DNA of 64,000 nucleotides from assembly GCA_000002435.2 (NCBI GenBank), contig CM018789.1. One strand, 5' to 3'. The translations under genes and the position numbers were made by a program. The DNA comes from Giardia intestinalis. Its lineage: Eukaryota. Below the pieces are notes generated by a model, which had not been told where the DNA came from, searched no databases, and worked only from the letters and a program-made list of their open reading frames with translations. Shown in pieces: positions 10,165 to 50,871 of this stretch (its first letter is position 1; each line of letters begins with the position of its first letter).

Positions 10165-11931
10165 ATGAATAAATATCAACTACAACAAATAATGCTCGAC
10201 TCGGCGGTCGTTAACGCTATCCTGGAGATCCTCAAGGCTATCAACGACAAGGCTGGAGTCGTAGAGCAAAAGGATGTTACACGCGCAAGCGCCCTAGTCG
10301 CACGTCAATACAGTCTGCCACAGGCACCCTCTGTTGCGGACATTGCGTCCTCTCTTCCAGCAGCTCAGAAGCTAGAGTTATCTAGCTATCTTGTGCGAAA
10401 GCCTATCAGGTCCGCCTCGGGAGTTCAAGTAATTGCAGTTATGTGTAAGCCCCATCGCTGCCCGCACCAGGTCCGTACAGGTGCATCGTGCACATACTGT
10501 GGCGGCGGGCCAGATTCCGATTTTGCCTACTCGACTCAATCATACACCGGCTTTGAGCCGACTTCGATGAGAGCTATTCGGGCGAGGTATGATCCCACGG
10601 AGCAGGTTCGAGTCCGGATGGAGCAGCTTAGGCAGCTTGGTCACACCACGAACAAGATAGAAGTTGTCCTCATGGGAGGAACATTTCTTTCGACGCCACG
10701 CTCTTATCGCGACTCGTTCATATCTGGCATCTACACAGGGCTGACGGGGCATATCCCAGCGGGTCCCAAGCGAAACATAGTCCCAGAATCAATTTCCTAT
10801 GCTGCTCGCTCGTCTATTAAGTGTGTTGCACTGACCATTGAAACACGTCCAGACTATTGCGAGCCGCGGCATCTAGCTGACATGCTGCGGTACGGAACGA
10901 CACGTCTTGAGATTGGTGTTCAGTCTGTCTACGATGATGTCTGTGGAGACATCAACCGTGGTCATACAGTGCGGAGCGTAATTCGCTGCTTTGGACAGAG
11001 TAAGGACGCCGGATTCAAAATGATTGCACACATGATGCCCAATCTTCCTTTTACAAGTACCTTTAGAGACATCTTTGGATTCCAGGAGCTGTTTCAGTCA
11101 ACAAACTACCGTCCTGACGGTCTGAAGATCTATCCCACGCTGATAATACGTGGCACAGAGCTCTATGAGCGCTGGCGTTTGAACAAGTACCTGCGTAACT
11201 TACCGACGCACAAGCTCATTTATTTATTAACCATCATCTATGTTTTAGCGCCCCCATGGGTAAGGATCTATCGAATAATGCGAGATATACCTCTGCCACT
11301 TATCTCTGCTGGCGTGGACTCGTCGAACTTACGCGAGCTTGCTCTGGCGTCCCTAGCACGCTCTGAAACACAGTCACTGGAAATCAGACAACGGGAGTCA
11401 GGAATTGTCGAAGCGGCTTCCAATGAAATGACTAAGAAGTCTCTATACACACAGGACGGAGGAAACGCCCGTGAGTCTTCTACTGATATTACCCCAGAGA
11501 TCTGTAGGAGAGACTACTGGGCAAACGGAGGTTGGGAGACCTTTCTCAGCATTGAGGCGCCAATAGACTTGGACACCACTCCTACCTCAAAGGCTCGAAC
11601 GTCTCCGCCTGTCCTCTACGCCCTGTGCAGATTGAGAAGACTTCCGCGAGGTGGCGGAGGGCGTTTTCTGGGCATTCGTCCAGAGCTACAGGGGAAGACG
11701 TCTCTGATCCGAGAGGTGCATGTATATGGTAATGCAGTGGGCTTGAGTGAGCGAGGAGTCAGTGTCCAACACAGAGGCTATGGGCGTATACTCGTCAGGG
11801 AGGCGGAGCGCATAGCCAGAAATGAGCACAAAAGCGTCAAACTTGCCATCATAGCGGGCGTTGGAACTAGGGAATACTACTCTAAATTGGGCTACGCCCT
11901 TGATGGCCCATATATGTCACGGACACTCTAG
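10165..11931 (+). CDS. ELP3: Elongator complex protein 3 (radical-SAM + GNAT acetyltransferase)
   Basis: Radical-SAM cysteine motif CPHQVRTGASCTYCGGGPDSDFAYSTQSYTGFEPTSMRAIRARYDP, the GGTFLS motif, and a C-terminal GNAT region (RGYGRILVREAERIA). Full-length collinearity with ELP3. Confidence 0.92.
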   Translation: MNKYQLQQIMLDSAVVNAILEILKAINDKAGVVEQKDVTRASALVARQYSLPQAPSVADIASSLPAAQKLELSSYLVRKPIRSASGVQVIAVMCKPHRCPHQVRTGASCTYCGGGPDSDFAYSTQSYTGFEPTSMRAIRARYDPTEQVRVRMEQLRQLGHTTNKIEVVLMGGTFLSTPRSYRDSFISGIYTGLTGHIPAGPKRNIVPESISYAARSSIKCVALTIETRPDYCEPRHLADMLRYGTTRLEIGVQSVYDDVCGDINRGHTVRSVIRCFGQSKDAGFKMIAHMMPNLPFTSTFRDIFGFQELFQSTNYRPDGLKIYPTLIIRGTELYERWRLNKYLRNLPTHKLIYLLTIIYVLAPPWVRIYRIMRDIPLPLISAGVDSSNLRELALASLARSETQSLEIRQRESGIVEAASNEMTKKSLYTQDGGNARESSTDITPEICRRDYWANGGWETFLSIEAPIDLDTTPTSKARTSPPVLYALCRLRRLPRGGGGRFLGIRPELQGKTSLIREVHVYGNAVGLSERGVSVQHRGYGRILVREAERIARNEHKSVKLAIIAGVGTREYYSKLGYALDGPYMSRTL

Positions 11932-17656: not shown

Positions 17657-17978
17657 CTTACCAGATGCAGGAACAGGAATGGGCGAGGAGACTGGAGCCG
17701 CGGGGGTGGGGGTGGCCACCTGCAGCAGAAGGCCGAGCACGAAGACGAGGGCCTCACGTCCATCGGCGTTGAGCCGCGGGAAGGCCTGGTCCAGGGCGGC
17801 GAGGAGGGAGGGGCACGCGCGGACACTCGCGCAAGCGGGGGGCGGCCCGCCCTCCAGGACGCGGCCCAGACGGCGCAGCCCGCGGGTCAGGTCCTCGGGG
17901 GCGGCGAGCCCGCGGACAAACGCGGCGGGGTCGTCGAGGCCCCCGCAGCCGACCGGCTTGGTCATTGGGTCGGAAACG

Positions 17979-18061
17979 TGCAACCTGTGGGGCTCGAACC
18001 CACGCGGGATGACTCCCATTACGGCCTTAACGTAACGCCTTAACCACTCGGCCAAAGTTGC
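17979..18061 (-). tRNA. tRNA-Leu(AAG): tRNA-Leu (anticodon AAG), type II with long variable arm
   Basis: Hand-folded. Acceptor stem GCAACTT/AGGTTGC (7 bp, one G-U). D-arm GCC-GAGTGGTTAA-GGC. Anticodon stem TTACG/CGTAA with loop TTAAGGC (U33, AAG, G37). 15-nt variable arm. T-arm GTGGG-TTCGAGC-CCCAC. Discriminator A. No encoded CCA. Confidence 0.85.
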
Positions 18062-18547
18062 GCGCCAGCGGCAGTCCATGATAGACCCGTTTTCAAGGGT
18101 CTTTGGTATTGGTTCCACAAATCAATGTTAGACTGCATCGCCCGCCACAGAGGATGCGCGCGTAGGAGTCGCATACTTCACTTACAAGCAGCATAGGGCT
18201 GGCTAGCGTGCGACACACGGTTTGCTCGTCGAAGCGGACTGGACTCCTAGCTGAGCGCTGTGCTGGCGAAAGAAACACAGAGTTTCATGTCGTAAAACAA
18301 GGGTGGTTGTGAGGTAGTTACCTCTACCGAACGCTGGCCAGAGCCGTTGCTAGCGTTTTCACCAAAGGCCGCAATAACGCGCCGATCCGGCCGTTAGGCA
18401 GCGGGAGGAACCACGGTCCCCAGGGATATGCTAGCAGCACAAGAACCGTGCAAGAATTGAGCGTGGACATGCACGAGTTCTTTTACTGCGGAAGTGGACT
18501 GTATGCCGAGGCTTGTGCGATCATCAGCCTTTTGGTGCCAAGCCCTA

Positions 18548-19040
18548 CTAAGTAGAAATGAGCTGCTGTATCAGGATAACAGGGTTCACTACAAGATAGG
18601 TAGGTGGCCAGACAGCGCAGCCCCTAAGCCCTTGCAAAGCTGGTTCTACAGGTCGATCTGGAGCTAAGGTTGCGCAACGACCGCAGTCTTGCGGGTCACG
18701 GCGAACTGGCACGTGAGCCCTCGAGATCCGCGAGCCATACGTCGTGTAGCTCCGCCAGCCCTCTTCTTCTAGAATAAGTAGGAGTTCCTGAGAAGCTTCG
18801 CTCCATGGGCAATAATAGAAGGCCTGCTTCCTAAGGATCGCGGTCCATATATCTCCGCATAGAAGACCTGAACAAGCCGAGTGGCGTCCTGTAGCGTCAA
18901 GGATAGCCTCAGCGTGGGACTTGGCCCAGGACTTTGCAGGCGCGTACTCTATGCAGCCACGTGCCGCTTTAGCGAGGTTCTGTCTTACTCGTCCGATTTC
19001 GGGCCTCCCCAGATGAAACCCCAGGAAGCAGTGGCGCATG
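18548..19040 (-). other. 164-codon ATG-initiated ORF inside IR-L (Arg-rich, GC-rich); doubtful as protein-coding, overlaps candidate ncRNA
   Basis: The track ORF starts at GTG 19066; the first ATG is at 19040. The translation is Arg/Ala/Gly-rich with no recognisable motif. The opposite strand carries similar-length ORFs, as expected for ~60% GC DNA. Confidence 0.2.
18596..19006 (-). ncRNA. Candidate RNase P/MRP-like RNA (left copy) - speculative
   Basis: Mirror image of 22060-22470 (see that entry). The CR-I-like GCAAAGUCCUGGGCC is at 18921-18935 (reverse complement). Confidence 0.2.
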
Positions 19041-19943
19041 CGCCGCGCCGGCGGGGCTCTGGTCACGGTGTGCTGTCAGTTTGACGCAGGTTGCACGGTC
19101 CACTTTCCGAAAAATGGAGCGTTATGAGCTGTTGTTTATTGCATAACTATAGCGTAAAATTGAACGGGTTATCTAGAGCCCGAGGTAGCTCTCTGGTCGC
19201 ATAACTAGAAAGCTTCATATCTGGACGGATCCAGCCCTTGAGAGCATTGTAGGACAGGGCCGATTTGAATGGATAAGAAGCTGTGAGGCAATTTCTCGTT
19301 TAGTGAAGTCACAATCAGACTGTTTAAAGAGCAATATTATACTACGCTTGACTGCAATTTTATGAGGGACTCAAGCTCTTAGATGTCCCTATCTTCACTT
19401 GCATGGCAATAGGCAGACCACTAGCCCATTTTTACATAGTTCTACTAATAAGGTCCCACATCATCATACGCACATGCGGTGGAGTATTCGTTCTAAGAGC
19501 CACGGTAACAGTTCACTGCTATTTTTATATACTAAGATTGTTACATTTACTTCCCGCTCAGCGAGACTATAGCATCGAAGCTTGGTATATCGAACCACTT
19601 TGCATTTTTCAACATAATAACAATATCTGATCAAAAGCACCACAATCAACAAGATACTGGCTTCATATATGAATAGCGCAGGGATGTAACACTGATGTGC
19701 ACTAACGGGCAAAACTAACATTGATAGTGAATTATTGCCTATTAAAACGAAAATCCATTAGATTTTTGTGCCTTTACCTCGTGGACTTTGATAGATGGTA
19801 TCACTGGACTGTCGTATCTTATAAATTCAGATGCCAGAATCCTAGTAAGTTAAAATACGTCCATTTACTAATAGTATTCTATCTCATAAAAATTACAATT
19901 CTTCTTATATGTGTGTTATCAAATGAGATATCAATTTCGCTAA

Positions 19944-21455
19944 ATGCTGATTTCTATAGTGCTCTCCATAGCATCAGCATGCAGCATGGAAACGCCTTTC
20001 ACTGAGGAGCCCAGTCATGGGATGGGTGTACGCTTCACTCAGCGTGGATTGGAAAAATTTTGCCAGAAAGGTTATGCCCTTATTCCTGATATCATCTCTG
20101 CAATGCCTTCACTTCAGGTCCCAGAAGTAACTGTTGGACCTCTCAAGTTTACTTTGTCAAATGTCAAACCTCGCGCAGCGCGCGTCTCGACTATGAAGGT
20201 TCATTTGCAGGACAACAACTTTGTCAAGATGGAGGCCCGGGACGGACTCATGCAGATCTCGATGCGGCTCAAGGCAGTCATCACCGGGATCACCGGGACC
20301 GTCGACTGCATCTTCACCCTCAAGGATTTCGGGGCAGACATCTCCCTGAGGCTCGGGGATGACTCCACCTGTCCCTACCACTTTGGGCTCTCCGAGATAT
20401 CAAATGTCGTGTACTCGTCTGGGTTTGACATCGATGCCATCGGACTTGACACGGGGGGATCTGTCCTTGCAACTGCCATCCAGGGCATGGCGCCCACGTT
20501 GGAGGATTTGATGAAGAACACTGTGCTGCAGTCCCTCCTGGACACAATCTTCAATTCAGTAAAACAGTCAATGCTTAACCTGCTCACAGTTGTCCAGATC
20601 GACGACTATCTGACTGACCAGCGCTACATCAACGGCATCAATGTCGTCGATAACAAGATAGTGGCAGACCAGGGTGGCTTTTCAATGATCATCACTGTCC
20701 CAGATTGGTCGGTTAGAGCTCTCTATCCAAACAAGATCACCTCTCCCCCTCCGAAGACGGTCTACACCGACCGAGACTATGAGTTCTATGTAGACAGGGA
20801 ATCAGTTAACTCCTACCTGTATGCCTGGCATGTGGCGTATGACAAGTTCAAGGCAGATAGTCTCACTGTCCCGTACAGCACCATCAGGGGGCAGAACATA
20901 CCCGGCCTTGCAGAGGCCCTTGTGAAGGCCGGACTACTAAGCACTGTTAACGACCTTGGACTCGGAGTCACTCTGACTCTATCGATCAGTCCCTCCAAGG
21001 ATGCCGCACCCCACATACCGTGGATCGGGGCGGCTGCGCTACCGGTCAACCTCACGGGGGCACTTTCTGTAACGGCCAGTAAGGCTTCCACCTCTGCTTC
21101 TAAACTGTTGGTTAGTGCAGAAGGCAATGTGCTCTTTGTTTCTGCGCTTAAGCTTAGAAAGTTCGTTTATGGGTTTGGTCTTGACCAAGTCTATGCACAT
21201 ATAGAGTTTCTTGATGTGTACGAAATTGCTATCATCAAGAATAACGTTGGATCTATACATGACTTCATCCCTCTGTTAAAATTTCTGCTTCTAAATAAGT
21301 ACCTCCCATTTGCCAATCCAATCCTCACTGAAACAGGGATATGGCGTATGAATGGGAACTTTATTAGTTATGATGCCATCAGTACCATTTATTTATGCAA
21401 CGAAGATAGAGTGCTTTTTGCTACTGATGTAGAAAAGAACCAATACTTCGCTTGA
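19944..21455 (+). CDS. Secreted BPI/LBP-fold-like (TULIP superfamily) lipid-binding protein candidate
   Basis: Signal-peptide-like N-terminus MLISIVLSIASACS. The N-terminal region is collinear with the BPI N-terminal domain: GVRFTQRGLEKF vs VVVRISQKGLDYA, and LKFTLSNVK vs LKFSISNANIK. ATG 19944 is preceded by an in-frame TAA. AGTAAAT heptamer about 105 nt after the stop. Sits in a ~35% GC island. Confidence 0.5.
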   Translation: MLISIVLSIASACSMETPFTEEPSHGMGVRFTQRGLEKFCQKGYALIPDIISAMPSLQVPEVTVGPLKFTLSNVKPRAARVSTMKVHLQDNNFVKMEARDGLMQISMRLKAVITGITGTVDCIFTLKDFGADISLRLGDDSTCPYHFGLSEISNVVYSSGFDIDAIGLDTGGSVLATAIQGMAPTLEDLMKNTVLQSLLDTIFNSVKQSMLNLLTVVQIDDYLTDQRYINGINVVDNKIVADQGGFSMIITVPDWSVRALYPNKITSPPPKTVYTDRDYEFYVDRESVNSYLYAWHVAYDKFKADSLTVPYSTIRGQNIPGLAEALVKAGLLSTVNDLGLGVTLTLSISPSKDAAPHIPWIGAAALPVNLTGALSVTASKASTSASKLLVSAEGNVLFVSALKLRKFVYGFGLDQVYAHIEFLDVYEIAIIKNNVGSIHDFIPLLKFLLLNKYLPFANPILTETGIWRMNGNFISYDAISTIYLCNEDRVLFATDVEKNQYFA

Positions 21456-22026
21456 ACGTTCATTCTACGACTTATTAGTATGCACATGGGTTGATATCAT
21501 GTCACTCGAGTAACTTTACTTGGCGAACAATCTGCTACCTTTAGTCACAACATAGAATAGTAAATGTTAGTATCTCTCAATCCAGATGTAATTTGTAGCA
21601 ACAGTATTTAAAGATCAGTGATGCGTTATCCAACTTTGTAATTGAATGCAGAGCAACCCTGTTGTTCAAATAACAAGTGTAAAGTTAGTCTGAAAAACAG
21701 ATGCAAGTTCTTTTAATAAAGTATTTGCTTTCACTACTCATCGTTCAACTAGTGTCTTAACAACAGAAGCAGTTTTTTAGTTAGATATCTTTATTGAATA
21801 CTATTTAAATTCTAAAATCCTTTTAGCATCGATAAGATAAGGGCGAGACCGTGCTAAGATATGTAGTCTTTATTTTGTATAGTGAGTAATCCGCCGCAAT
21901 CAGCTATTTCTTCGTTGAGTGCAGCAGAATCTATCTGATAACAAAGCAAACAAACACCTTTATACAGTAAGACTACAGCGGCAGCGCAAACAGCACACCG
22001 TGACCAGAGCCCCGCCGGCGCGGCGC

Positions 22027-22518
22027 ATGCGCCACTGCTTCCTGGGGTTTCATCTGGGGAGGCCCGAAATCGGACGAGTAAGACAGAACCTCGCTAAAGC
22101 GGCACGTGGCTGCATAGAGTACGCGCCTGCAAAGTCCTGGGCCAAGTCCCACGCTGAGGCTATCCTTGACGCTACAGGACGCCACTCGGCTTGTTCAGGT
22201 CTTCTATGCGGAGATATATGGACCGCGATCCTTAGGAAGCAGGCCTTCTATTATTGCCCATGGAGCGAAGCTTCTCAGGAACTCCTACTTATTCTAGAAG
22301 AAGAGGGCTGGCGGAGCTACACGACGTATGGCTCGCGGATCTCGAGGGCTCACGTGCCAGTTCGCCGTGACCCGCAAGACTGCGGTCGTTGCGCAACCTT
22401 AGCTCCAGATCGACCTGTAGAACCAGCTTTGCAAGGGCTTAGGGGCTGCGCTGTCTGGCCACCTACCTATCTTGTAGTGAACCCTGTTATCCTGATACAG
22501 CAGCTCATTTCTACTTAG
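22027..22518 (+). other. 164-codon ORF inside IR-R (copy of 18548-19040); doubtful as protein-coding
   Basis: Predicted protein identical to the left-arm ORF. The track start at 21919 is a GTG. Confidence 0.2.
22060..22470 (+). ncRNA. Candidate RNase P/MRP-like RNA (right copy) - speculative
   Basis: GCAAAGUCCUGGGCC at 22128-22142 resembles CR-I (GGAAAGUCCGGGC). CAAGGGCUUAGG at 22432-22443 resembles CR-V (...GGCUUA). The two are about 300 nt apart and can pair as a 7-bp P4 helix, AAGUCCU with AGGGCUU (one G-U). Same strand as tRNA-Leu 0.5 kb downstream. The coding quality of the region is poor. Confidence 0.2.
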
Positions 22519-23004
22519 TAGGGCTTGGCACCAAAAGGCTGATGATCGCACAAGCCTCGGCATACAGTCCACTTCCGCAGTAAAAGAACTCGTGCATGTC
22601 CACGCTCAATTCTTGCACGGTTCTTGTGCTGCTAGCATATCCCTGGGGACCGTGGTTCCTCCCGCTGCCTAACGGCCGGATCGGCGCGTTATTGCGGCCT
22701 TTGGTGAAAACGCTAGCAACGGCTCTGGCCAGCGTTCGGTAGAGGTAACTACCTCACAACCACCCTTGTTTTACGACATGAAACTCTGTGTTTCTTTCGC
22801 CAGCACAGCGCTCAGCTAGGAGTCCAGTCCGCTTCGACGAGCAAACCGTGTGTCGCACGCTAGCCAGCCCTATGCTGCTTGTAAGTGAAGTATGCGACTC
22901 CTACGCGCGCATCCTCTGTGGCGGGCGATGCAGTCTAACATTGATTTGTGGAACCAATACCAAAGACCCTTGAAAACGGGTCTATCATGGACTGCCGCTG
23001 GCGC

Positions 23005-23087
23005 GCAACTTTGGCCGAGTGGTTAAGGCGTTACGTTAAGGCCGTAATGGGAGTCATCCCGCGTGGGTTCGAGCCCCACAGGTTGCA
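23005..23087 (+). tRNA. tRNA-Leu(AAG): tRNA-Leu (anticodon AAG), identical second copy
   Basis: Same hand-folded cloverleaf as 17979-18061. Anticodon AAG at 23038-23040. Confidence 0.85.
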
Positions 23088-23519
23088 CGTTTCCGACCCA
23101 ATGACCAAGCCGGTCGGCTGCGGGGGCCTCGACGACCCCGCCGCGTTTGTCCGCGGGCTCGCCGCCCCCGAGGACCTGACCCGCGGGCTGCGCCGTCTGG
23201 GCCGCGTCCTGGAGGGCGGGCCGCCCCCCGCTTGCGCGAGTGTCCGCGCGTGCCCCTCCCTCCTCGCCGCCCTGGACCAGGCCTTCTACTGCTCTGCCTG
23301 CGTGGTGGGTGTCCCCAGGCAACTGTCCTCCCCGTCTCCGTCGCTGACACTGCCTGCCCCTCTCTGCGCTACGATCCGGCCTCCTCCCTCCTCTATGTCC
23401 TGGCCCCCACGACTGATGTAGGAGTCGTTCTGTGCTGCGTCTGCTTCCAGGAGCCCGCAACTCTGGACCCGGCGCTACGGGGGTTCGAGTGGTTCACTCA
23501 GACCGGCACGGAGTTTTAC

Positions 23520-24038
23520 ATGTCCCGGGTTGTTGTCTCGAGTCCCGAGGAGCATCTCTCGTACCGCTGCAAAGAGGGTCCTGAGCTTGCAGAGGCGCAG
23601 GTCGGGGCCGTCTGCATGTGTGGCACCTCGGCTGTCGTCGCCGTGTCGGCCGTTTCCGAGACCGGCGAGCGCTCCGATCTGCCGGTCCTCCTGGTCGTCT
23701 CCGGCCTGCTGTCGCATCTCTCGTTCTCCACGATAGAACTCGATGACTTCGGGGCCCAGAACCTACCCCCGGAGTCAGAGTCGTTCCGCATCTTCTCTCT
23801 GTCCCCATCCTCGGCTGCCCCGGGAAGCCTCTGTCTGGCCTTCTGCAAGGGAAGCCTCCTCCACTTCCACAGGATGCCCGTGGAGAGCGGCACAGACAGC
23901 CCCCGCTCTGTCGGCACATGCGAGCTGGCCCCTTCGACACACACGTTCTGCGCCCTGTACGAGACAGAAGGGGCCCTGCGGTGCGTCTTCACGGCCGTGG
24001 ATGGAGCGCGCCTGTTCCTCTGCATGGCGAGTACGTAG
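23520..24038 (+). pseudogene. Truncated, diverged paralog of the 16607-17656 gene (probable pseudogene)
   Basis: The translation aligns with the left-flank protein: LPVLLVVSGLLSHLSFSTIELDDFGAQ vs ALLVVERLVTSHACFCDVSDLPIDQ, and ALYETEGALRCVFTAV vs KEYTEAGCMGVCIFLL. It is about half the length and stops 110 codons early. The 420 bp that follow are GC-rich and lack an ORF. The DNA just outside the IR boundary shows indel-laden homology. Confidence 0.4.
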
Positions 24039-24434
24039 GTGAGTTCCGGCCGTCGCGCTGGGGTCGGGGGGAGGTCGCAGAAGGACCAGGAGGGGAGGCA
24101 GAGGAAGCACAAGGCACGGGTCAGCGATGCGTAGGGCTGTCCTTCCGCTGCCCAGTGCATACAAGGGTGCGCACAGCCACGACCGTCGCGCAGACGAGCC
24201 AATGGCAGGAGCGGGCCCGCACCTCTTCCTGCGCCGTGGAGTCTGAGGATCCGAGCTGGGGTCCCGGGGATGACACACAGGGGCACAGACACGCAGGCGC
24301 ACCTCTTCAGTGCCCCACAAACGGATGCTCTCGTGCAGAGGCCACGGGAGTCTATGAATGAGGCCCACGAGAGCCCAGAGATCGGGCACCCACTGCTCAC
24401 CCACGCCAGAGCACCGCCCACATGTCCATACAGC

Positions 24435-24449
24435 ATTTACTACCTAAGT
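24435..24449 (-). promoter_or_regulatory. VSP-type extended polyadenylation signal ACTTAGGTAGTAAAT (contains AGTAAAT)
   Basis: Reverse complement of 24435-24449, 10-24 nt after the VSP TAA (24459-24461). Matches ACTYAGRTAGTRAAY at every position. Confidence 0.7.
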
Positions 24450-24458
24450 GGATGCCAC

Positions 24459-26357
24459 TTACGCCTTCCCGCGGCAGATGAACCACCAGCAAAGGAAGCC
24501 CACGAGGCCTCCGACGACGACGATGACAGCAACAGAGATGCCGGCTATGGCCCCAGTGGAGAGACCACTCTTGTTTGTACTACCACCGGCGTTGTTATCG
24601 TTACCACCATCGTTAGTGCCATCTGTCTTGACGTAGCAGGTGACAGGACCACTATTACCAGTTGGAGGGGCACAGCTTATACAATTTGGGACACCAACAA
24701 TATGGCTACCATCATTGGGATCATTGGTGTCGCACTTCACACATTTTGCTCCGGCAAGATAGTATCCCGGAAGGCACGTTTTGCATGCCTCCTTGTTTGC
24801 TACCTCACATGTTTTACAACCAGATGCACATGCTGGACAAGATCCAGTGCTAGCTTCTGGTTGTTGTCCATTAGCACAATTCGTACATTTTCCATTCTGA
24901 GCATTGCTACATAGGTTGCTGCCTGGGTATGCAGCCGACTGATAGCATCCGCCAGATTGCAAGAAGTATGTGGTTGTACACGCTTTGCATGTTCCATCAT
25001 TGTTATCATTTGGCGTGCATCCAGTTACTGCCCTTGTCGTTGTCGACACACAGACGCCGTCCACTGGGACGTATCCGGCCTTGCACTTGCTGCAGTACTT
25101 CGAGCCCCCAACGACGGCCGTGCACTGGCCAGCCTCGCAGTTCTCTGCGTACCTTCCCGTGCACTCTGGGATGCATGTGCCGGTGGCTCCAGTATTGCTT
25201 TTACTCAATACAAGCCCAGGATAACAAGCTGTACAGGAGGCTTCACTATCACCATCACATTCTGCACAAGAATTATGGCAATTAGTACATATCCCGCTGA
25301 CATCACGAGTTCCTGCAGGACAGCCCTCCATACACATGTTCTTTAAGGGGTTTAGGCTTTTACCTCCAGTACACTCTTCACACATATTCTCTTCATTACA
25401 CTTTATACAATCCTGTATATCACATAGTACACACTTCGTTCCGTCGGCGTTGGGTTGATTAGTACCTGCTATACAAGCAGAGCACGTGATGAGAATTGTA
25501 CCTTCAGGATTATCCTTCAGAGCACACGTTTTGCAGTCTGCTATCCCTTCTGAGCATTTCTTACACATTTTTCCATTAGTAGGATCGTCAGCATCATCAG
25601 TGAAGTGGGAGTTATCATTACATCCACTTTTATCAATACATGTATTAGAGTCCTCGGTTTCGCCCTTTTTTAGATATGGCTTGTTAGCGGTTGCCTTGCA
25701 CTTCGTGCATTTTCCTGCTCCACCATCGCATTTAGCACAGTTATCCCTATCAGTACACGCTGTACACGTACTTCCAGCATTACCAAGATTTGTACCGAAA
25801 AATCCCTCTAGACACGTTTTGCATATAGCAACATCTGAGCTAGGAGGATCACATGTCGCACAGCCCTCCAAGCCTTTCTTGCCTCCAACTCCAGTTGCAT
25901 CATTGCATGCAATACAAGAGTCCTTATTGTTAGCTGCACTTGGGTTTTTAAAATAGCCAACTACGCAACCCTCACAAACGCCAGGAGTTGTTGATGACAC
26001 ACGACTAGCAGCTGCGGCATCAGCGCAAATAAAGCGTCCAACGTCCCCGCCAATTGCATAGCATCCGTTCTTATGGAGGAAGTATCCTTGAGCGCATTGG
26101 GTGCACGTTCCGTCAGCTGCTCGGGCTTTGAGCTGGCATCCACTGGCGCCTGCCTCTGCCTTACACCCTCCATCAACGAGGTACTCGTCAGTCTTAGCGC
26201 ACTGCGAGCAATACTTCTTGCCGTTGATCCACACGTCGCATTTGCTTGTCAAGCACTTTCCTGCTTGGCCTTCCCCTGCCTCCGTGCACGTCTCTGCCTC
26301 CGGCGCTGCCCAAGCCAATTGCAAAACAAATCCCGCAACGATCAATCTACAGAACAT
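24459..26357 (-). CDS. VSP: Variant-specific surface protein (VSP)
   Basis: Signal peptide MFCRLIVAGFVLQLAWA. About 12% Cys with many CXXC motifs. GGCY motif (LQSGGCYQS). C-terminal TM helix, then the invariant CRGKA terminus. Extended poly(A) signal follows the stop. Confidence 0.93.
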   Translation of the reverse strand: MFCRLIVAGFVLQLAWAAPEAETCTEAGEGQAGKCLTSKCDVWINGKKYCSQCAKTDEYLVDGGCKAEAGASGCQLKARAADGTCTQCAQGYFLHKNGCYAIGGDVGRFICADAAAASRVSSTTPGVCEGCVVGYFKNPSAANNKDSCIACNDATGVGGKKGLEGCATCDPPSSDVAICKTCLEGFFGTNLGNAGSTCTACTDRDNCAKCDGGAGKCTKCKATANKPYLKKGETEDSNTCIDKSGCNDNSHFTDDADDPTNGKMCKKCSEGIADCKTCALKDNPEGTILITCSACIAGTNQPNADGTKCVLCDIQDCIKCNEENMCEECTGGKSLNPLKNMCMEGCPAGTRDVSGICTNCHNSCAECDGDSEASCTACYPGLVLSKSNTGATGTCIPECTGRYAENCEAGQCTAVVGGSKYCSKCKAGYVPVDGVCVSTTTRAVTGCTPNDNNDGTCKACTTTYFLQSGGCYQSAAYPGSNLCSNAQNGKCTNCANGQQPEASTGSCPACASGCKTCEVANKEACKTCLPGYYLAGAKCVKCDTNDPNDGSHIVGVPNCISCAPPTGNSGPVTCYVKTDGTNDGGNDNNAGGSTNKSGLSTGAIAGISVAVIVVVGGLVGFLCWWFICRGKA

Positions 26358-38331: not shown

Positions 38332-38536
38332 AGATCAGATCTCTCCTGGAGGTCTGCAGGGATACCTGTTGAGGAAAGGATCAGGGGAATGGACAGAGGA
38401 ATCATCAGAAGTGAGCCTTCTGACAAATGCGCATTGTCATCATTTTATTTATTTCCGGTTCCCGTGGAGATCAACCGCTGTCGGTGTACCCCCTCGTCAT
38501 TCTACTGGTGGATTAGTTTTGTCTGTGTACCCCAAC

Positions 38537-45760: not shown

Positions 45761-46915
45761 ATGCGAAAGACATCTGTTTGGATTCTCGCACTCCTTATTA
45801 GATGCGTGCTAATTTGGCTAGGGACTTACATAAGTGATCCACCGGCGTTATCGATGACAGATATCGACTATCTCGTTGTTTGGGATGGAGTATGCCTGGC
45901 ACCAGTTCCCAGTGAGCGGCCAACATATCGCTACTCTCCAATCTTTAAGGTAATATGTTGGCCTATGTGCAGGTGGCCCACATATGGCAAAGTTCTTTAC
46001 TCACTATCAGACCTTATATTTGCCTTACTCGCGTACAGAATTACACGGCATAGTCAAAGAGTACATCACCTCTGGCTGATGAACCCGTTCGTCATTGCCT
46101 TGTCTGTGCGGGGAAGCTTCGACAGCATTGTCCAAACGCTGGTGGCATGGATGCTATTGACTATTAAGCAGCATAAGTATTTGATGTCAGGCCTTCTGCT
46201 TGGTCTATGTATTCACTTGCGCATATATCCCATAATCTTTACCCCTTTCCTTCTGCTCTATGCCTTATTAGATAGGAAGGCTGATCAAAGGGAGCCGCTG
46301 GATGGAATTTTTCGGGCAGGATTGCTTTTATGTTGCACGCTGATATCATTCTTTGCAACCACCCTGATATCGATGTTGATAGATGATGGATACTTGTCAT
46401 CAGGATTGCTTTATCATGTCTCTGGACGTGTTGATCACAGGCACAACTTGAGCATTTTGTGGGCCGTCCAGCTCGCATGCTCGAAGGGCAAAGAAGTTTA
46501 CTGCTGGCCATTTGCAAAGCTATTTCAAACAGTGATCTTAGCCGCTCTCATTATCCAACGCGTTCTAGCGTTAAGAACGTTAGAACCAATTGAGAATGAA
46601 GAGGCTCAATCTGTGCTCAAGCGAAGATACTTCTATCATCAACTTCTCAGTGATCTAGACCAGGCCTGCCGGGCATTCGTGGCATTTAATTCAGTTGTTA
46701 CAGCCCAGTATTTTTCGTGGACATTTGCCACTTTCACGCTCTCGCCCAACGCTGTTCTCAACAAAACAAGTTATGGCAAACTGGCCACTTTTGTTGGTAG
46801 TCTTGGTCTTTCCTTATGCATTTCCGGAGCACTAGAGTTCTCCGGAAAAACGAAATATTTATCATTGATTACCCTGGCAAACACTGCCGCGATGGGCTCT
46901 CTTCTATTCTTGTAA
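45761..46915 (+). CDS. PIGM: GPI mannosyltransferase I (PIG-M)
   Basis: TDIDYLVVWDG DXD-type motif, RPTYRYSPIF (PIG-M RATYRYTPLL), and NPFVIALSVRGSFDSIVQ (PIG-M NPLPMAVSSRGNADSIV). Multi-TM. The track ORF 44945-46915 is inflated by an antisense extension over the CDF gene; the ATG is at 45761 (acgatataaaATG). Confidence 0.85.
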   Translation: MRKTSVWILALLIRCVLIWLGTYISDPPALSMTDIDYLVVWDGVCLAPVPSERPTYRYSPIFKVICWPMCRWPTYGKVLYSLSDLIFALLAYRITRHSQRVHHLWLMNPFVIALSVRGSFDSIVQTLVAWMLLTIKQHKYLMSGLLLGLCIHLRIYPIIFTPFLLLYALLDRKADQREPLDGIFRAGLLLCCTLISFFATTLISMLIDDGYLSSGLLYHVSGRVDHRHNLSILWAVQLACSKGKEVYCWPFAKLFQTVILAALIIQRVLALRTLEPIENEEAQSVLKRRYFYHQLLSDLDQACRAFVAFNSVVTAQYFSWTFATFTLSPNAVLNKTSYGKLATFVGSLGLSLCISGALEFSGKTKYLSLITLANTAAMGSLLFL

Positions 46916-46949
46916 CATTTGGAATAGCCGTAGCACAGTCCTGAAGCCA

Positions 46950-48700
46950 GAATATTGGGGTGAGGCTGTTGCCTGTTATTTGAATGATCTTCCCATGTGA
47001 CCCACCGCCGCCCTGGGCAAGTCCCTCGCTCGTTCACCAACCGAGATCCAGATCCAGAGTTCGATCTCAGGTGTCAGGCGACTCCGACGGGAGAAGAACT
47101 TTTGTTCTTCCCTCTTCCCAAGGACGAGGCAGGGCAACCACGATCAGGGGACGATCATGATGCGCTCCACAAGGCAGTCCCGAGCCTCCTGGAGACCCAG
47201 ACACTGGTCTTCTTCGAGACCGAGCAGACTGCGTTCCACCGATTGCACATGGGTGGTGTCCGCATGGCATACATGGAGATGCAGACTGATGGGCACAGCG
47301 GTTTCGCTCGACATAACGAGCACCCTAACAGTAGACGGCCTCTGCCAGGCGAGTGTGCCCCGTCCCGAGGAGTTGCGTCGAGGCCTTCCTCTAATTGCGC
47401 CACGCTGCACCCCTGGACTCGGTCCCTCAGGACCCTGAGCATGCTTCTGTGCTGCGTGGGATAGAACCTGCTCACCAGGAACTGAAGGAGATACCTCGCT
47501 CACTGCCTTGCCGACGACACATCCATCTTCCATAGTAGCAACAGTGACGCGACGGGGATAGCCACAGAGGCGACAGGCCTGGCGAAGCAACATGGCTCGA
47601 CGGTCAACACTGGGTGTAGGAGCACGGAGGGGCAGGAGGCCTTCTTCCTGGCCGGTCTTAAGGAGCTTCCAAGGCAACGAAGAGCTTGAAGCTAGTGATG
47701 GCACCAATCACTCGCCCCGCCTGTCCAGACGGACCCACACGCGGCCCATATGAATCCCTCGACAGGCAAGTCGGGATCCTTGGAGTGTCTGGCTGACAGA
47801 AGTGGACTGATCCTGCCCACACCGGAGAGCGGTGACCTGGGCCACCCGCCAGGCGTCTGCCGCAGCAGCTGGCAGTGCTTGACACCCTCGAGTAGACGGG
47901 TGCCGATTGTAGAGCGAGACAACCAAGCGGTGAACCGGTCCCGATCGCTCGTGATGCTTTGGATGACGCCTCGGTGGACCGAAGCATCACCTCCAAGCGC
48001 ACCATATGATGCGAGGATGGATGGAGCCCACAGGTCAGCTGAGCCAGACGCACTGCACAGGGTGAGCGTCGACATGATCTCGTCCTGGGTGACGGAGCAT
48101 CTGCAAAAGTGCACTGCGATCCATAAGCAGAGGGCCGGGCCTCCTCCTCGACACCACCGCATGGGAGCTGTCCGCCGGCATCCACGAACGCGTACTCTAA
48201 CTCCAAGATAGAGGTGCACGGGGAGCGCACCCTCCCGGTCATACTCGGGACTGATGGTGCAATCCACGAGGAGACAAGGAGGCACCCCGAGGAACGGGGT
48301 AGGCACCCGGGGCCGTGGGGTGGGATCTTTGTCGTAGAGCACCGGCACCACAAAGCGATCCTGGAGTATATGACCAGAGTCAAGCTCCCAAGACCAGATC
48401 GCCGCGACTGACGCAAGGCCCGAGACAACGGGCGCCCACCGGTGCCAGGTGGTGGTTGCCCCAAGCCAGCCAGAGGATGGGAGAGATCCTAGAGGTAACG
48501 TGAGGAGCAGCGGCTTCCGGGGGAGGCGGGCATAGGAGTTCTTCCGCTGGGATCGAGGGCATCTAACTCTCGGAGTTCTGATCTCAGCTACTGCAGGAGT
48601 GAGAGGCTTGCCTAGGGTGGTGGTGGCTCACATGGGAGATTACTCTGATAATAGGTGACAACCTCATCTCAGTGAAACGAAGAGTAAACTGGGCTGAGAG
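46950..48700. other. GC-rich (~60% GC) 1.7-kb block with no dominant reading frame: possible decayed gene/mobile-element remnant or non-coding transcript
   Basis: All six frames give overlapping 60-270-codon ORFs with Arg/Pro/Gly-rich translations; none spans the block. Two tandem AGTRAAY heptamers on the + strand (48683-48689, 48699-48705) lie at the 3' edge. Confidence 0.3.
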
Positions 48701-48747
48701 TAAATGGGGGTGTACATTTTTGAAAAGCTGACGAACCAGCCAAATCT

Positions 48748-49032
48748 ATGTCTGGACTTAGCGACCGTGTTTCTAAGATACTCACAGACTCTACACACAT
48801 AGCGGATGCCATGAGCCAGAGCGTGGTTGATGGAGCTGTTACAGGAGTCGCCTGTCGGAGCATAAGCGAAAGTACGCGACCAATAGTTACCCAACAGGTC
48901 GCTCTCAACGAAACTGCTGCGCAGAGGCTTGGAGATCTCCTCCAGCAATCGTTTGAGAGTGAACGGATAGATAGCATCCACAGCTATGACGGCACGACCT
49001 ATTGCGAGATCTCGTGCTGGGGCGCATTCTGA
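48748..49032 (+). CDS. Small hypothetical ORF (94 aa), weak call
   Basis: ATG-initiated ORF with balanced composition. It is overlapped by two antisense ORFs of similar length, so the coding strand is uncertain. Confidence 0.25.
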   Translation: MSGLSDRVSKILTDSTHIADAMSQSVVDGAVTGVACRSISESTRPIVTQQVALNETAAQRLGDLLQQSFESERIDSIHSYDGTTYCEISCWGAF

Positions 49033-49083
49033 AAACGCAGAATAAATTGCAGCAGCTCTCTTGATAAATTACAATCCAACTAA

Positions 49084-50871
49084 ATGAAAAGTATAAACCT
49101 TGATGATATCAAGGATTTACTGAAGAAGGCGCCTGCCGAAAGACTAATTTTGTTTTTCAAGCGCCAGTCAGAGTGGGCCGACTCGAGGGCCCCGCCACCA
49201 CTTAAGCGTGACACACCTCAATGCCAGGTAGATCCATCCACAAGTTTAGAACTGGTCAAGGCTGCCCTTCCGCATTACAGAGCTGCCATGCGCGAACTTG
49301 GCATTGATGAAGTCGATATTATGGCATACCTAGCTCGCTATGACGGAGCGTCTTCTATACCTCCGATGGAAGAAGTGCTAGAAGGCTTCTACAACGAAAA
49401 CAGATTGATCCGCTCCGAATACAAGCCACTGGATTTACAAGCAATAACGCCCGTGGATGCTCTTTTTCAATGTTATAACGGCTTGCCCACACCGAACGGA
49501 CTCCAGAGAGCTATTTTATCGCATATAGTAGATAACATCTCTACACGCGTGCGACATGGATACCCTCTCAAGGGGTTGATTGTGCTGGCTACGGGACTGG
49601 GTAAAACGTACCTATCTATATTTCTGCTCGATAGATTCCTTTGCAGTATATACGGTTCATTTCGTCACTTTCTAACCACAGAGCAGGGTGTTGTGCTATT
49701 TGTGGTTAACAGCACCGTTATCAAAGACCAAGCGTTTATGAGATACAAGGCATACTTCTCACGACTTGCGGACCCCGGTACAGACGTGGAGAGCCTGTTC
49801 CTAAAGATAGAGCCAGGTACCGATAGTGTCAGACTGGAGCAGGCTCTGCTCCGTGCAAGGCTTGTTTTTGTCTTGTTCCAATCCTTGCACACCCTGCAAA
49901 AGTATCCACATATATTCAATAGGATTTACTACATAATTGTGGACGAAGTCCATCACATAATAGCGCCTAAGTATTGCAGTAGCATTTCTCTGCTGACCAG
50001 CCACCCGAAGCTTCGACTCCTAGTGGGCCTAACTGCTACTCTGGTGCACAGAGACGATCCTACGGCAGATAGAATAAAGCAGATCTTTGACAACAATCTT
50101 TTTGTAGACTTGCCGTGGACAACTGCCAAGAGTCTACAATTCTTCCCACAGGTCGAATATTATGAGTATGGACACGGATCATATCAGACTCTGGTTGCTG
50201 GCCTGAGGAACAAAACGGCTTCAGTTCAGAACTTCCTCACTGCTATACGTAAGAGTTTAGAGCGTGGTGTCACTACAGCGGGAGAGGCTGTTGTTGATGA
50301 TATAATTCGTTTCATCGCTCATAAAAAGTGCAAACGATCTATTATATTTTTCGGATCAATAACAGACCTAAATAGCTTCTACTCACTTTCTAAGAACGCT
50401 ACAGACAAGCTGTGCAGACAAAGCGAGCAAGGGGATATTGAGTTCTTCCCAATACACTACCAGATCAAAAAGCAGGTGCTTGCAGATAGATTTGCTCGCT
50501 TCTGTTCACCGCCATCTGAAACAGACAGGTTTGTGCTGCTCACAGTTGGCATGGCAACAGAAGGCTTTGACTTCCAGTTCATAGACATGGTTGTTATGCT
50601 CCGGAGAACAGAGTCTGAAAGGATCTTTGTTCAGCAACTCGGGCGTGGTCTGCGGAAGTACCCTGGAAAGGACGTCGTGTACGTGCTGGACTATGTGTAC
50701 GGTCTGCGTAACCGATGGGCTCGCTGTGCCGCTGCCGCCACTGCAGACCTCGATGCCTTGCGGGAGGACATTCTGTCCTTTTGGCCGGTGACAACACTGG
50801 CACCCCCGTATCTTCCCCTTCAAGGGGTGCACACCTCCCAAGACACCGACTCCATTAGCGTACTGGATTGA
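49084..50871 (+). CDS. Superfamily-2 DEVH-box helicase (ResIII/XPB-like core) with ~150-aa N-terminal extension
   Basis: Motif I LATGLGKTY, II IIVDEVHH, III GLTATL, and VI QQLGRGLR with an upstream TVGMATEGFDF. ATG 49084 follows an A/T-rich sequence (aattacaatccaactaaATG). Confidence 0.8.
   Translation: MKSINLDDIKDLLKKAPAERLILFFKRQSEWADSRAPPPLKRDTPQCQVDPSTSLELVKAALPHYRAAMRELGIDEVDIMAYLARYDGASSIPPMEEVLEGFYNENRLIRSEYKPLDLQAITPVDALFQCYNGLPTPNGLQRAILSHIVDNISTRVRHGYPLKGLIVLATGLGKTYLSIFLLDRFLCSIYGSFRHFLTTEQGVVLFVVNSTVIKDQAFMRYKAYFSRLADPGTDVESLFLKIEPGTDSVRLEQALLRARLVFVLFQSLHTLQKYPHIFNRIYYIIVDEVHHIIAPKYCSSISLLTSHPKLRLLVGLTATLVHRDDPTADRIKQIFDNNLFVDLPWTTAKSLQFFPQVEYYEYGHGSYQTLVAGLRNKTASVQNFLTAIRKSLERGVTTAGEAVVDDIIRFIAHKKCKRSIIFFGSITDLNSFYSLSKNATDKLCRQSEQGDIEFFPIHYQIKKQVLADRFARFCSPPSETDRFVLLTVGMATEGFDFQFIDMVVMLRRTESERIFVQQLGRGLRKYPGKDVVYVLDYVYGLRNRWARCAAAATADLDALREDILSFWPVTTLAPPYLPLQGVHTSQDTDSISVLD

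Follow-up and report, generated by a model that had tools for sequence, protein, structure and literature searches.

In a stretch of 64,000 nucleotides (nt) from contig CM018789.1 of Giardia intestinalis WB (assembly GCA_000002435.2), referred to as the window, a block rich in guanine and cytosine (GC) lies at 46916-48747, downstream of the PIG-M mannosyltransferase gene. Positions 46956-48688 of this block are best explained as a dead copy of a LINE-like retrotransposon of the type without long terminal repeats (non-LTR), oriented on the plus strand, missing its 5' part and most probably belonging to the family GilD, also called Genie 2, a reading that we consider very probable on the sequence. 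The call of a dead non-LTR retrotransposon, taken separately, is held with slightly more confidence. The element is of a known kind, found in the genome in which that kind was first described, and is not a new gene or RNA. The initial annotation had offered a degenerate Gil-like retroelement and a frameshift-decayed unit among several options for this block. The first is borne out by a reverse transcriptase (RT) remnant, by a dispersed degenerate repeat family and by the absence of the block from the orthologous site of Giardia P15 and GS, the second by the spread of the RT remnant over three frames of the plus strand.

The RT remnant was recognized through sister copies of the block. An exhaustive HMMER search with P0015, an open reading frame (ORF) on the metagenomic Giardia sequence L013, retrieved P0028 with E = 3.4e-15 as well as further ORFs of sister copies. 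P0028 is annotated as "hypothetical protein GLP15_3331, partial" of Giardia P15 and matches the Pfam family RVT_1 with 39.4 bits (cut-off 29.6, E = 6.7e-10, profile positions 24-188 of 205). In a tblastn search of P0028 against the 64-kb window, three collinear plus-strand pieces in three frames were obtained at 47226-47608 with a joint E = 1.7e-25, and none of the other matches in the 64 kb was below E = 5. Piece 1 (47226-47396, frame 3) covers P0028 residues 24-77 and includes motif A as AVSLDIT, piece 2 (47368-47490, frame 1) covers residues 79-118 with 68% identity and contains an in-frame stop (FL*LRH), and piece 3 (47510-47608, frame 2) covers residues 127-159 with 64% identity and includes motifs C and D, motif C reading CLADD in the window and AYADD in P0028. 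Since these matches are collinear and fall in three frames, they identify the block as a frameshift-decayed RT gene on the plus strand, with at least two frameshifts and one stop in its core. Downstream of the core, 47609-48509 (plus strand) would represent the decayed remainder of the ORF; it is present in 6-8 of the 8 copies with 74-84% identity, and a significant protein match was not obtained for it. A possible Cys/His and RH(D/N) remnant at about 48000-48112 is a resemblance at motif level only. The search with P0015 also returned P0033 (E = 1.1e-5, four matched stretches), a protein of 1258 residues with long repeats inside. A gene at L007 95-3871, which ends 13 nt from the copy in L007, has a product of the same length (1258 residues), and the match to P0033 appears to be an artefact of repeats or composition.

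The composition of the block was largely as initially described. Its GC content is 59.2% compared to 47.9% for the full window, close to the 60% given before; windows of 300 nt range from 57 to 64% between about 46950 and 48600, and a uniform GC content of around 50% was not seen. Values at or above that of the block occur in 33 of 1244 windows of equal length, 31 of them from the VSP-containing stretch between 21.9 and 23.4 kb; the remaining two are the block itself. All six frames contain stops (7-29 per frame) and no intact gene, in line with the reported lack of a dominant frame. That only short ORFs are present was correct with respect to intact genes, but the minus strand stays free of stops for 311 codons at 47695-48627 and for 276 codons at 47661-48488. 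The enrichment of Arg, Pro and Gly was confirmed (28.7% of the six-frame translation of the block, 19.4% in the remaining window), and the peptide fragments that had been quoted were found in the translations.

The 311-codon run, or the hypothetical ORFs of the sister copies, might be taken for a real Giardia-specific protein. A stop-free run of this length has a likelihood of about 4e-5 per start position, as estimated from base composition at 60% GC, and hypothetical proteins such as GL50803_0031391 and DHA2_151684 have been called on sister copies. However, these proteins match only copies of the repeat and jump between frames, no Pfam or PDB match was found, and the locus is missing from P15 and GS. 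The RT remnant lies on the opposite strand and has its third codon positions in common with the run, whose translation is, by eye, rich in Trp, Cys and Arg. A real protein is hardly credible on these grounds. Third codon positions, the most GC-rich ones, coincide between the minus frame and the plus frame that have the fewest stops; in GC-rich genes, antisense frames usually stay open for this reason. The long minus-strand runs are thus antisense or out-of-frame by-products of the 60% GC and not genes. A clean single-frame gene hidden in the block, which had been considered as an outcome, was not found either, the block being missing from the orthologous loci.

Other genomic copies, for which a BLASTN search had been suggested, were indeed obtained. 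Seven further independent copies at unrelated Giardia loci are 74-84% identical to the block, three of them in DHA2 (L005, L006 and L007) and four in metagenomic Giardia sequences (L008, L009/L010/L011, L012 and L013). An alignment of all eight copies showed internal deletions of 24, 29, about 178 and about 660 nt, together with many copy-specific insertions or deletions of 1-2 nt; many of the length differences among copies are not multiples of three. Substitutions among the copies gave a weak and inconsistent periodicity signal. In WB, DHA2 and metagenomes, a protein search with the 311-codon run retrieved 13 short Giardia proteins annotated as hypothetical, which match piecewise and with switching frames, and word-indexed protein searches with the minus-strand run and the plus-strand translation returned sister copies only. 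The "hypothetical protein" ORFs called on the copies change frame from copy to copy. These alignments place the block as one copy of a dispersed, degenerate Giardia repeat family. In L005, L007 and L012, three of the eight copy loci, VSP genes are no more than about 5 kb away from the copy, while ordinary genes flank the copies in L006, L008 and L009 as well as the one in the window. Immediately upstream of the longer DHA2 copy, at L005 12366-12827, repeat units of about 72-103 nt with mutual identities of 82-96% are arranged in tandem; in translation the array resembles tRNA-gene sequence, with GGSNPRPSAYQTDALPTELTDRGP repeated.

The repeat also leaves a trace in short-read assemblies. Logan contigs, 23 for each of two neighbouring genes and from at least three sequencing runs, all break at 48488 or 48495, which is where L001-L004 start. 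Exact 31-mers are common to the window, L008 and L012 at 48488-48524 (starts 48488-48494), just upstream of the right-hand inverted arm described below, and contigs built with k=31 therefore break at 48488/48495. The break at 48488-48495 is thus a repeat-induced assembly artefact and not a biological boundary.

To place the block in an evolutionary context, the orthologous regions of P15 (assemblage E) and GS (assemblage B) were compared with the window. All three have the same gene order, with a cation-efflux gene followed by PIG-M, an ORF of 94 codons and a helicase gene. In P15 and GS, the intergenic region between PIG-M and the 94-codon ORF measures 457 and 767 nt, respectively, has a GC content of 36-39% and shows no similarity to the block. 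Similarity between the window and P15 breaks off at about 46943-46966 and picks up again at about 48686. Because the orthologous intergenic regions are short, AT-rich and without the block, the comparison identifies the block as an insertion at about 46956-48688 that WB has and the orthologous site of P15 and GS does not. About 350 nt of AT-rich P15 intergenic DNA have no counterpart in the window.

The right junction falls at about 48686-48689, and homology to the P15 empty site restarts at ACTGGGCT. The left junction is ambiguous within about 46943-46966; past about 46943 a similar stretch, ATTGGGG(C)TG(A/G)GG, is present in P15, and the copy behind P0014 departs from the window upstream of about 46958. 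The P15 empty site (L082 6236-6250) has AGTTTATTGGGGCTGGG, which resembles the outer end of the inverted arm; this outer end reads CGTTTCATTGGGGCGGGG in L006 (about 10795-10812) and ATATTGGGGTGAGG in the window (46950-46966). The likeness leaves the left junction ambiguous by about 20 nt and could be due to chance, to microhomology at integration or to a tiny remnant.

The two edges of the insertion are related to each other. An arm of the 5' side (46956-47130, minus strand) is an inverted duplicate of the 3' region of the element and aligns locally with the 3'-side arm (48510-48671, plus strand), which is presumably 3' untranslated region (UTR) and is also present in L007, L008 and L012. The duplicate is about 165 nt long (175 nt on the left side), and Watson-Crick pairs are found at 119 of 178 alignment columns, the outer 90 nt being best kept. 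The window, L006 and the copy behind P0014 have the same arm and arm-to-body junction, hence no fewer than three loci. Because this junction recurs at different loci, the arm structure predates the dispersal or duplication of the copies. In the L006 insertion both outer ends are element 3' ends. The body starts about at the RVT_1 core, near profile position 24, and the N-terminal domains are all missing. L005, L008 and L013 reach further 5' with sequence that is absent from the window and themselves lack 47185-47361. L005 ends about at the start of the right arm and has no match to the left arm.

At the 3' end, the right edge passes the arm by 17 nt to GTGAAACGAAGAGTAAAC. The terminus at 48672-48689 (plus strand) includes AGTAAAC at 48683-48689 and is common to L007 and L006: GTGAAACGAAGAGTAAA(C/T) is shared by the window and L007 and is found inverted in the left arm of L006. 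Given that the terminus recurs in L007 and in the L006 arm, AGTAAAC is read as the element's own 3' signal. Two AGTRAAY heptamers had been reported, at 48683-48689 and 48699-48705, and they are the only matches on both strands of 46801-48800. The first, which had been placed at the 3' edge of a plus-strand unit, corresponds to the conserved element terminus. The second, AGTAAAT, belongs to the flank and lies within a near-duplicate of 16 nt, 48697-48712 resembling 48681-48696. No A-tail remains at the 3' end, and direct repeats of at least 22 nt, and hence long terminal direct repeats, are absent from 46700-48900.

Inverted arms at both edges of an inserted block, a size of about 1.7 kb and an arm arrangement common to copies at different loci are also what a DNA transposon with terminal inverted repeats, or a non-autonomous derivative of one, would display; such an element would move by cut-and-paste, with a transposase recognizing the arms of about 165 nt. 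However, the internal coding remnant is that of a reverse transcriptase, and no transposase family of Pfam was matched in any frame. Moreover, the ends are asymmetric, as the right end continues about 17 nt beyond the arm to the poly(A) signal, L005 stops about at the start of the right arm without matching the left arm, and no target-site duplication is visible relative to the P15 empty site. A DNA transposon is therefore regarded as highly improbable.

The arms could alternatively have given the retroelement fossil a new role as a non-coding RNA locus, in which read-through or internal transcripts would pair through the arms into a long double-stranded stem and be cut into small RNAs by Giardia Dicer. 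Joined by a linker, the arms are predicted to fold into a nearly continuous stem of -118.9 kcal/mol (z = -13.9), and none of 200 shuffled sequences was as stable (0/200). According to a review, the Giardia RNA interference machinery processes double-stranded RNA from oppositely oriented retroposon copies (PMC2875222), and an AGTAAAC signal is present at the 3' end. Against this, the block has no match to an Rfam family, and the excess of G:U-compatible differences between the arms on the plus strand (15 versus 6) is not significant. The complementarity of the arms has decayed to about 75-78%, much as elsewhere in the element, and this speaks against selection for the stem. Nothing in the arm sequences thus indicates such selection, and we consider a co-opted RNA locus quite unlikely.

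Several points weigh against the reading as a dead retrotransposon of a named family. The link to reverse transcriptases runs through one intermediate sequence, P0028. Pfam searches with stop-to-stop segments, stop-masked whole frames and ORFs of the eight-copy consensus gave no match, and neither did a PDB sequence search with the conceptual plus-strand translation. R2Bm, two other R2 proteins and L1 ORF2p, taken from PDB alignments, were compared with the window copy and the consensus by tblastn, by custom HMMs of the RT and C-terminal regions and by frameshift-aware profile-to-DNA alignment, with dinucleotide-shuffled controls. All of these searches stayed at noise level, even over the RT region that is matched through P0028. 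The C-terminal restriction-like endonuclease of PD-(D/E)xK type, expected behind a Cys/His motif in the clade of R2, CRE, NeSL and Genie, was not significantly detected, with HMM and frameshift-aware alignment again at noise. No target-site duplication is visible in the comparison with the P15 and GS empty sites, where both junctions are blurred by short similarities. Assignment to the GilD/Genie 2 family, which we consider likely, was reached by elimination and from descriptive features, and the window copy differs from that family in lying between housekeeping genes instead of a gene-poor VSP region.

For a dead non-LTR retrotransposon, the following history can be proposed. An active ancestor would have been transcribed and polyadenylated at AGTAAAC, and target-primed reverse transcription would have copied its RNA into a chromosomal site that had been nicked. 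Priming on RNA 3' ends may have taken place at both strands of the break and produced the inverted arm, with a head-to-head pair of 3' ends as the result, or the arm may already have been part of the transposing unit. Either the insertion or a later event would have removed the approximately 350 nt of P15-type AT-rich DNA, or P15 would have gained them. The copy would then have decayed neutrally, with no coding function now. It is conceivable, if unlikely, that the arm-bearing derivative lacking its 5' part was mobile as a non-autonomous unit, whose arms would place the 3'-UTR sequence recognized by the reverse transcriptase at the end of transcripts from both strands, that surviving copies are sources of hairpin RNA for Giardia Dicer/Argonaute, or both.

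PIG-M ends at 46915, and its P15 and GS orthologues match the Pfam families Mannosyl_trans and PIG-U; its 3' flank (46916-46955, plus strand) lies outside the element and is collinear with the P15 orthologue to about 46943. Downstream, the initial placement of the block between PIG-M and the helicase gene was right for the PIG-M side, but a conserved 94-codon ORF (48748-49032) precedes the helicase gene. This ORF has no Pfam match; in both P15 and GS a gene of 94 residues is called at the matching position, with DNA identities of 77-87%, and a genuine small gene is probable here. Only about 60 nt separate the end of the element, which lies beside the conserved GTGTA(C/A)ATTTTTGAAAAGCTGAC, from the ATG of the ORF, and the upstream region at 48690-48747 (plus strand), identified as lying outside the element by its identity to P15 and GS, is conserved. 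Identity amounts to 86.6% with P15 over 48710-49179 and to 76.6% with GS over 48717-49179. The protein of the helicase gene (49084-50871) is 100% identical to XP_001709106.1 of Giardia intestinalis WB, which places the window in assemblage A, as isolate WB or a strain nearly identical to it.

Further identities were considered and rejected. Ribosomal DNA (rDNA) or a structured RNA is not indicated, as Rfam has no match in the block. A VSP pseudogene is rejected since the sole VSP-like similarity in the window lies at 24433-24590. The other GC-rich region of the window shows no similarity to the block, so that a kinship between the two was also dismissed. This region, 21900-25000, is the GC-richest part of the window with up to 66%. 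The window also contains a perfect (100%) inverted repeat of 1297 nt with arms at 17780-19076 and 21990-23286, 2913 nt apart, which looks like a very recent inverted segmental duplication. Each arm carries a tRNA-Leu(AAG) gene (17978-18061, minus strand; 23005-23088, plus strand), and the spacer contains an ORF of 503 codons (19944-21455). In L005 and L007, the 3' ends of VSP genes have 75-82% identity to positions 24433-24590; the inverted duplication is therefore adjoined by a VSP gene or pseudogene, unrelated to the retroelement block. In addition, the minus strand carries the C/D-box snoRNA GlsR14 at 38378-38445 (100 bits in Rfam against a gathering score of 90), in agreement with the organism.

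For annotation, these results imply that the block should be masked as a retrotransposon fossil and that the "hypothetical proteins" called on sister copies, such as GL50803_0031391, GL50803_00116745, DHA2_151684, DHA2_152905, DHA2_152276 and DHA2_150217, should be treated as spurious, with GLP15_3331 being treated as an RT pseudogene fragment. The repeat accounts for the breaks of short-read assemblies of assemblage A at this locus. The insertion provides a dated presence/absence marker (present in WB, absent from P15 and GS) and illustrates that, where genes are dense, a dead copy of GilD type can be located 60 nt upstream of a conserved one. No new biological question arises from it.

Among known systems, R2-type elements (R2Bm, PDB 8gh6) resemble the block in a single ORF with a central RT and, at the level of motifs only, in a Cys/His and RH(D/N)-like remnant at a plausible downstream position; target-primed reverse transcription is presumed for both. 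The closest approach, between R2Bm (residues 922-975 of the 8gh6 chain, 461-514 of the 653-residue query) and L006, was non-significant (E = 0.054). The block has no statistically detectable similarity to R2/L1 proteins and no target specificity for rDNA. Twin priming of L1 and the inverted terminal repeats of Penelope-like elements, which carry a GIY-YIG endonuclease, likewise give copies that lack their 5' part an inverted segment on the 5' side. In twin priming, however, an internal 5' segment is inverted and the 3' end is not duplicated, and in contrast to head-to-head retroelement structures, the arm-to-body junction of the block recurs at different loci.

Giardia also has retrotransposon families of its own. 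GilD was reportedly described by Arkhipova and Morrison in 2001, and Genie 2 is said to be the same family under the name used by Burke, Malik, Rich and Eickbush in 2002, whose abstract reportedly describes, for Genie 2, inverted repeats that reach 172 bp, a length that the arms of about 165 nt would fit. WB harbours three retrotransposon families, two of which are telomeric and possibly still active (PMC3091692). One copy of GilM has 5,474 bp, encodes a reverse transcriptase and is located at chromosome ends (PMC7000408). GilM/GilT (Genie 1) share host and element class with the block, but by their literature description are intact, arranged in subtelomeric arrays and possibly active, whereas the block is a single, internal, decayed copy of 1.7 kb without its 5' part. 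When metagenomes were scanned with a published primer for Genie 1, the 68 matches were chance ones and none contained the second primer. GilD, in turn, is a dead family with internal deletions that adjoins VSP genes (PMC2861651). The block, compared here with GilD as known by description, agrees with GilD/Genie 2 in its WB host, its derivation from a reverse transcriptase and its dispersed internal copies. All eight aligned copies (8/8) are likewise broken by internal deletions, substitutions and frameshifts. VSP genes adjoin several of them, at three of the eight loci, while others, the window copy included, lie between ordinary genes.

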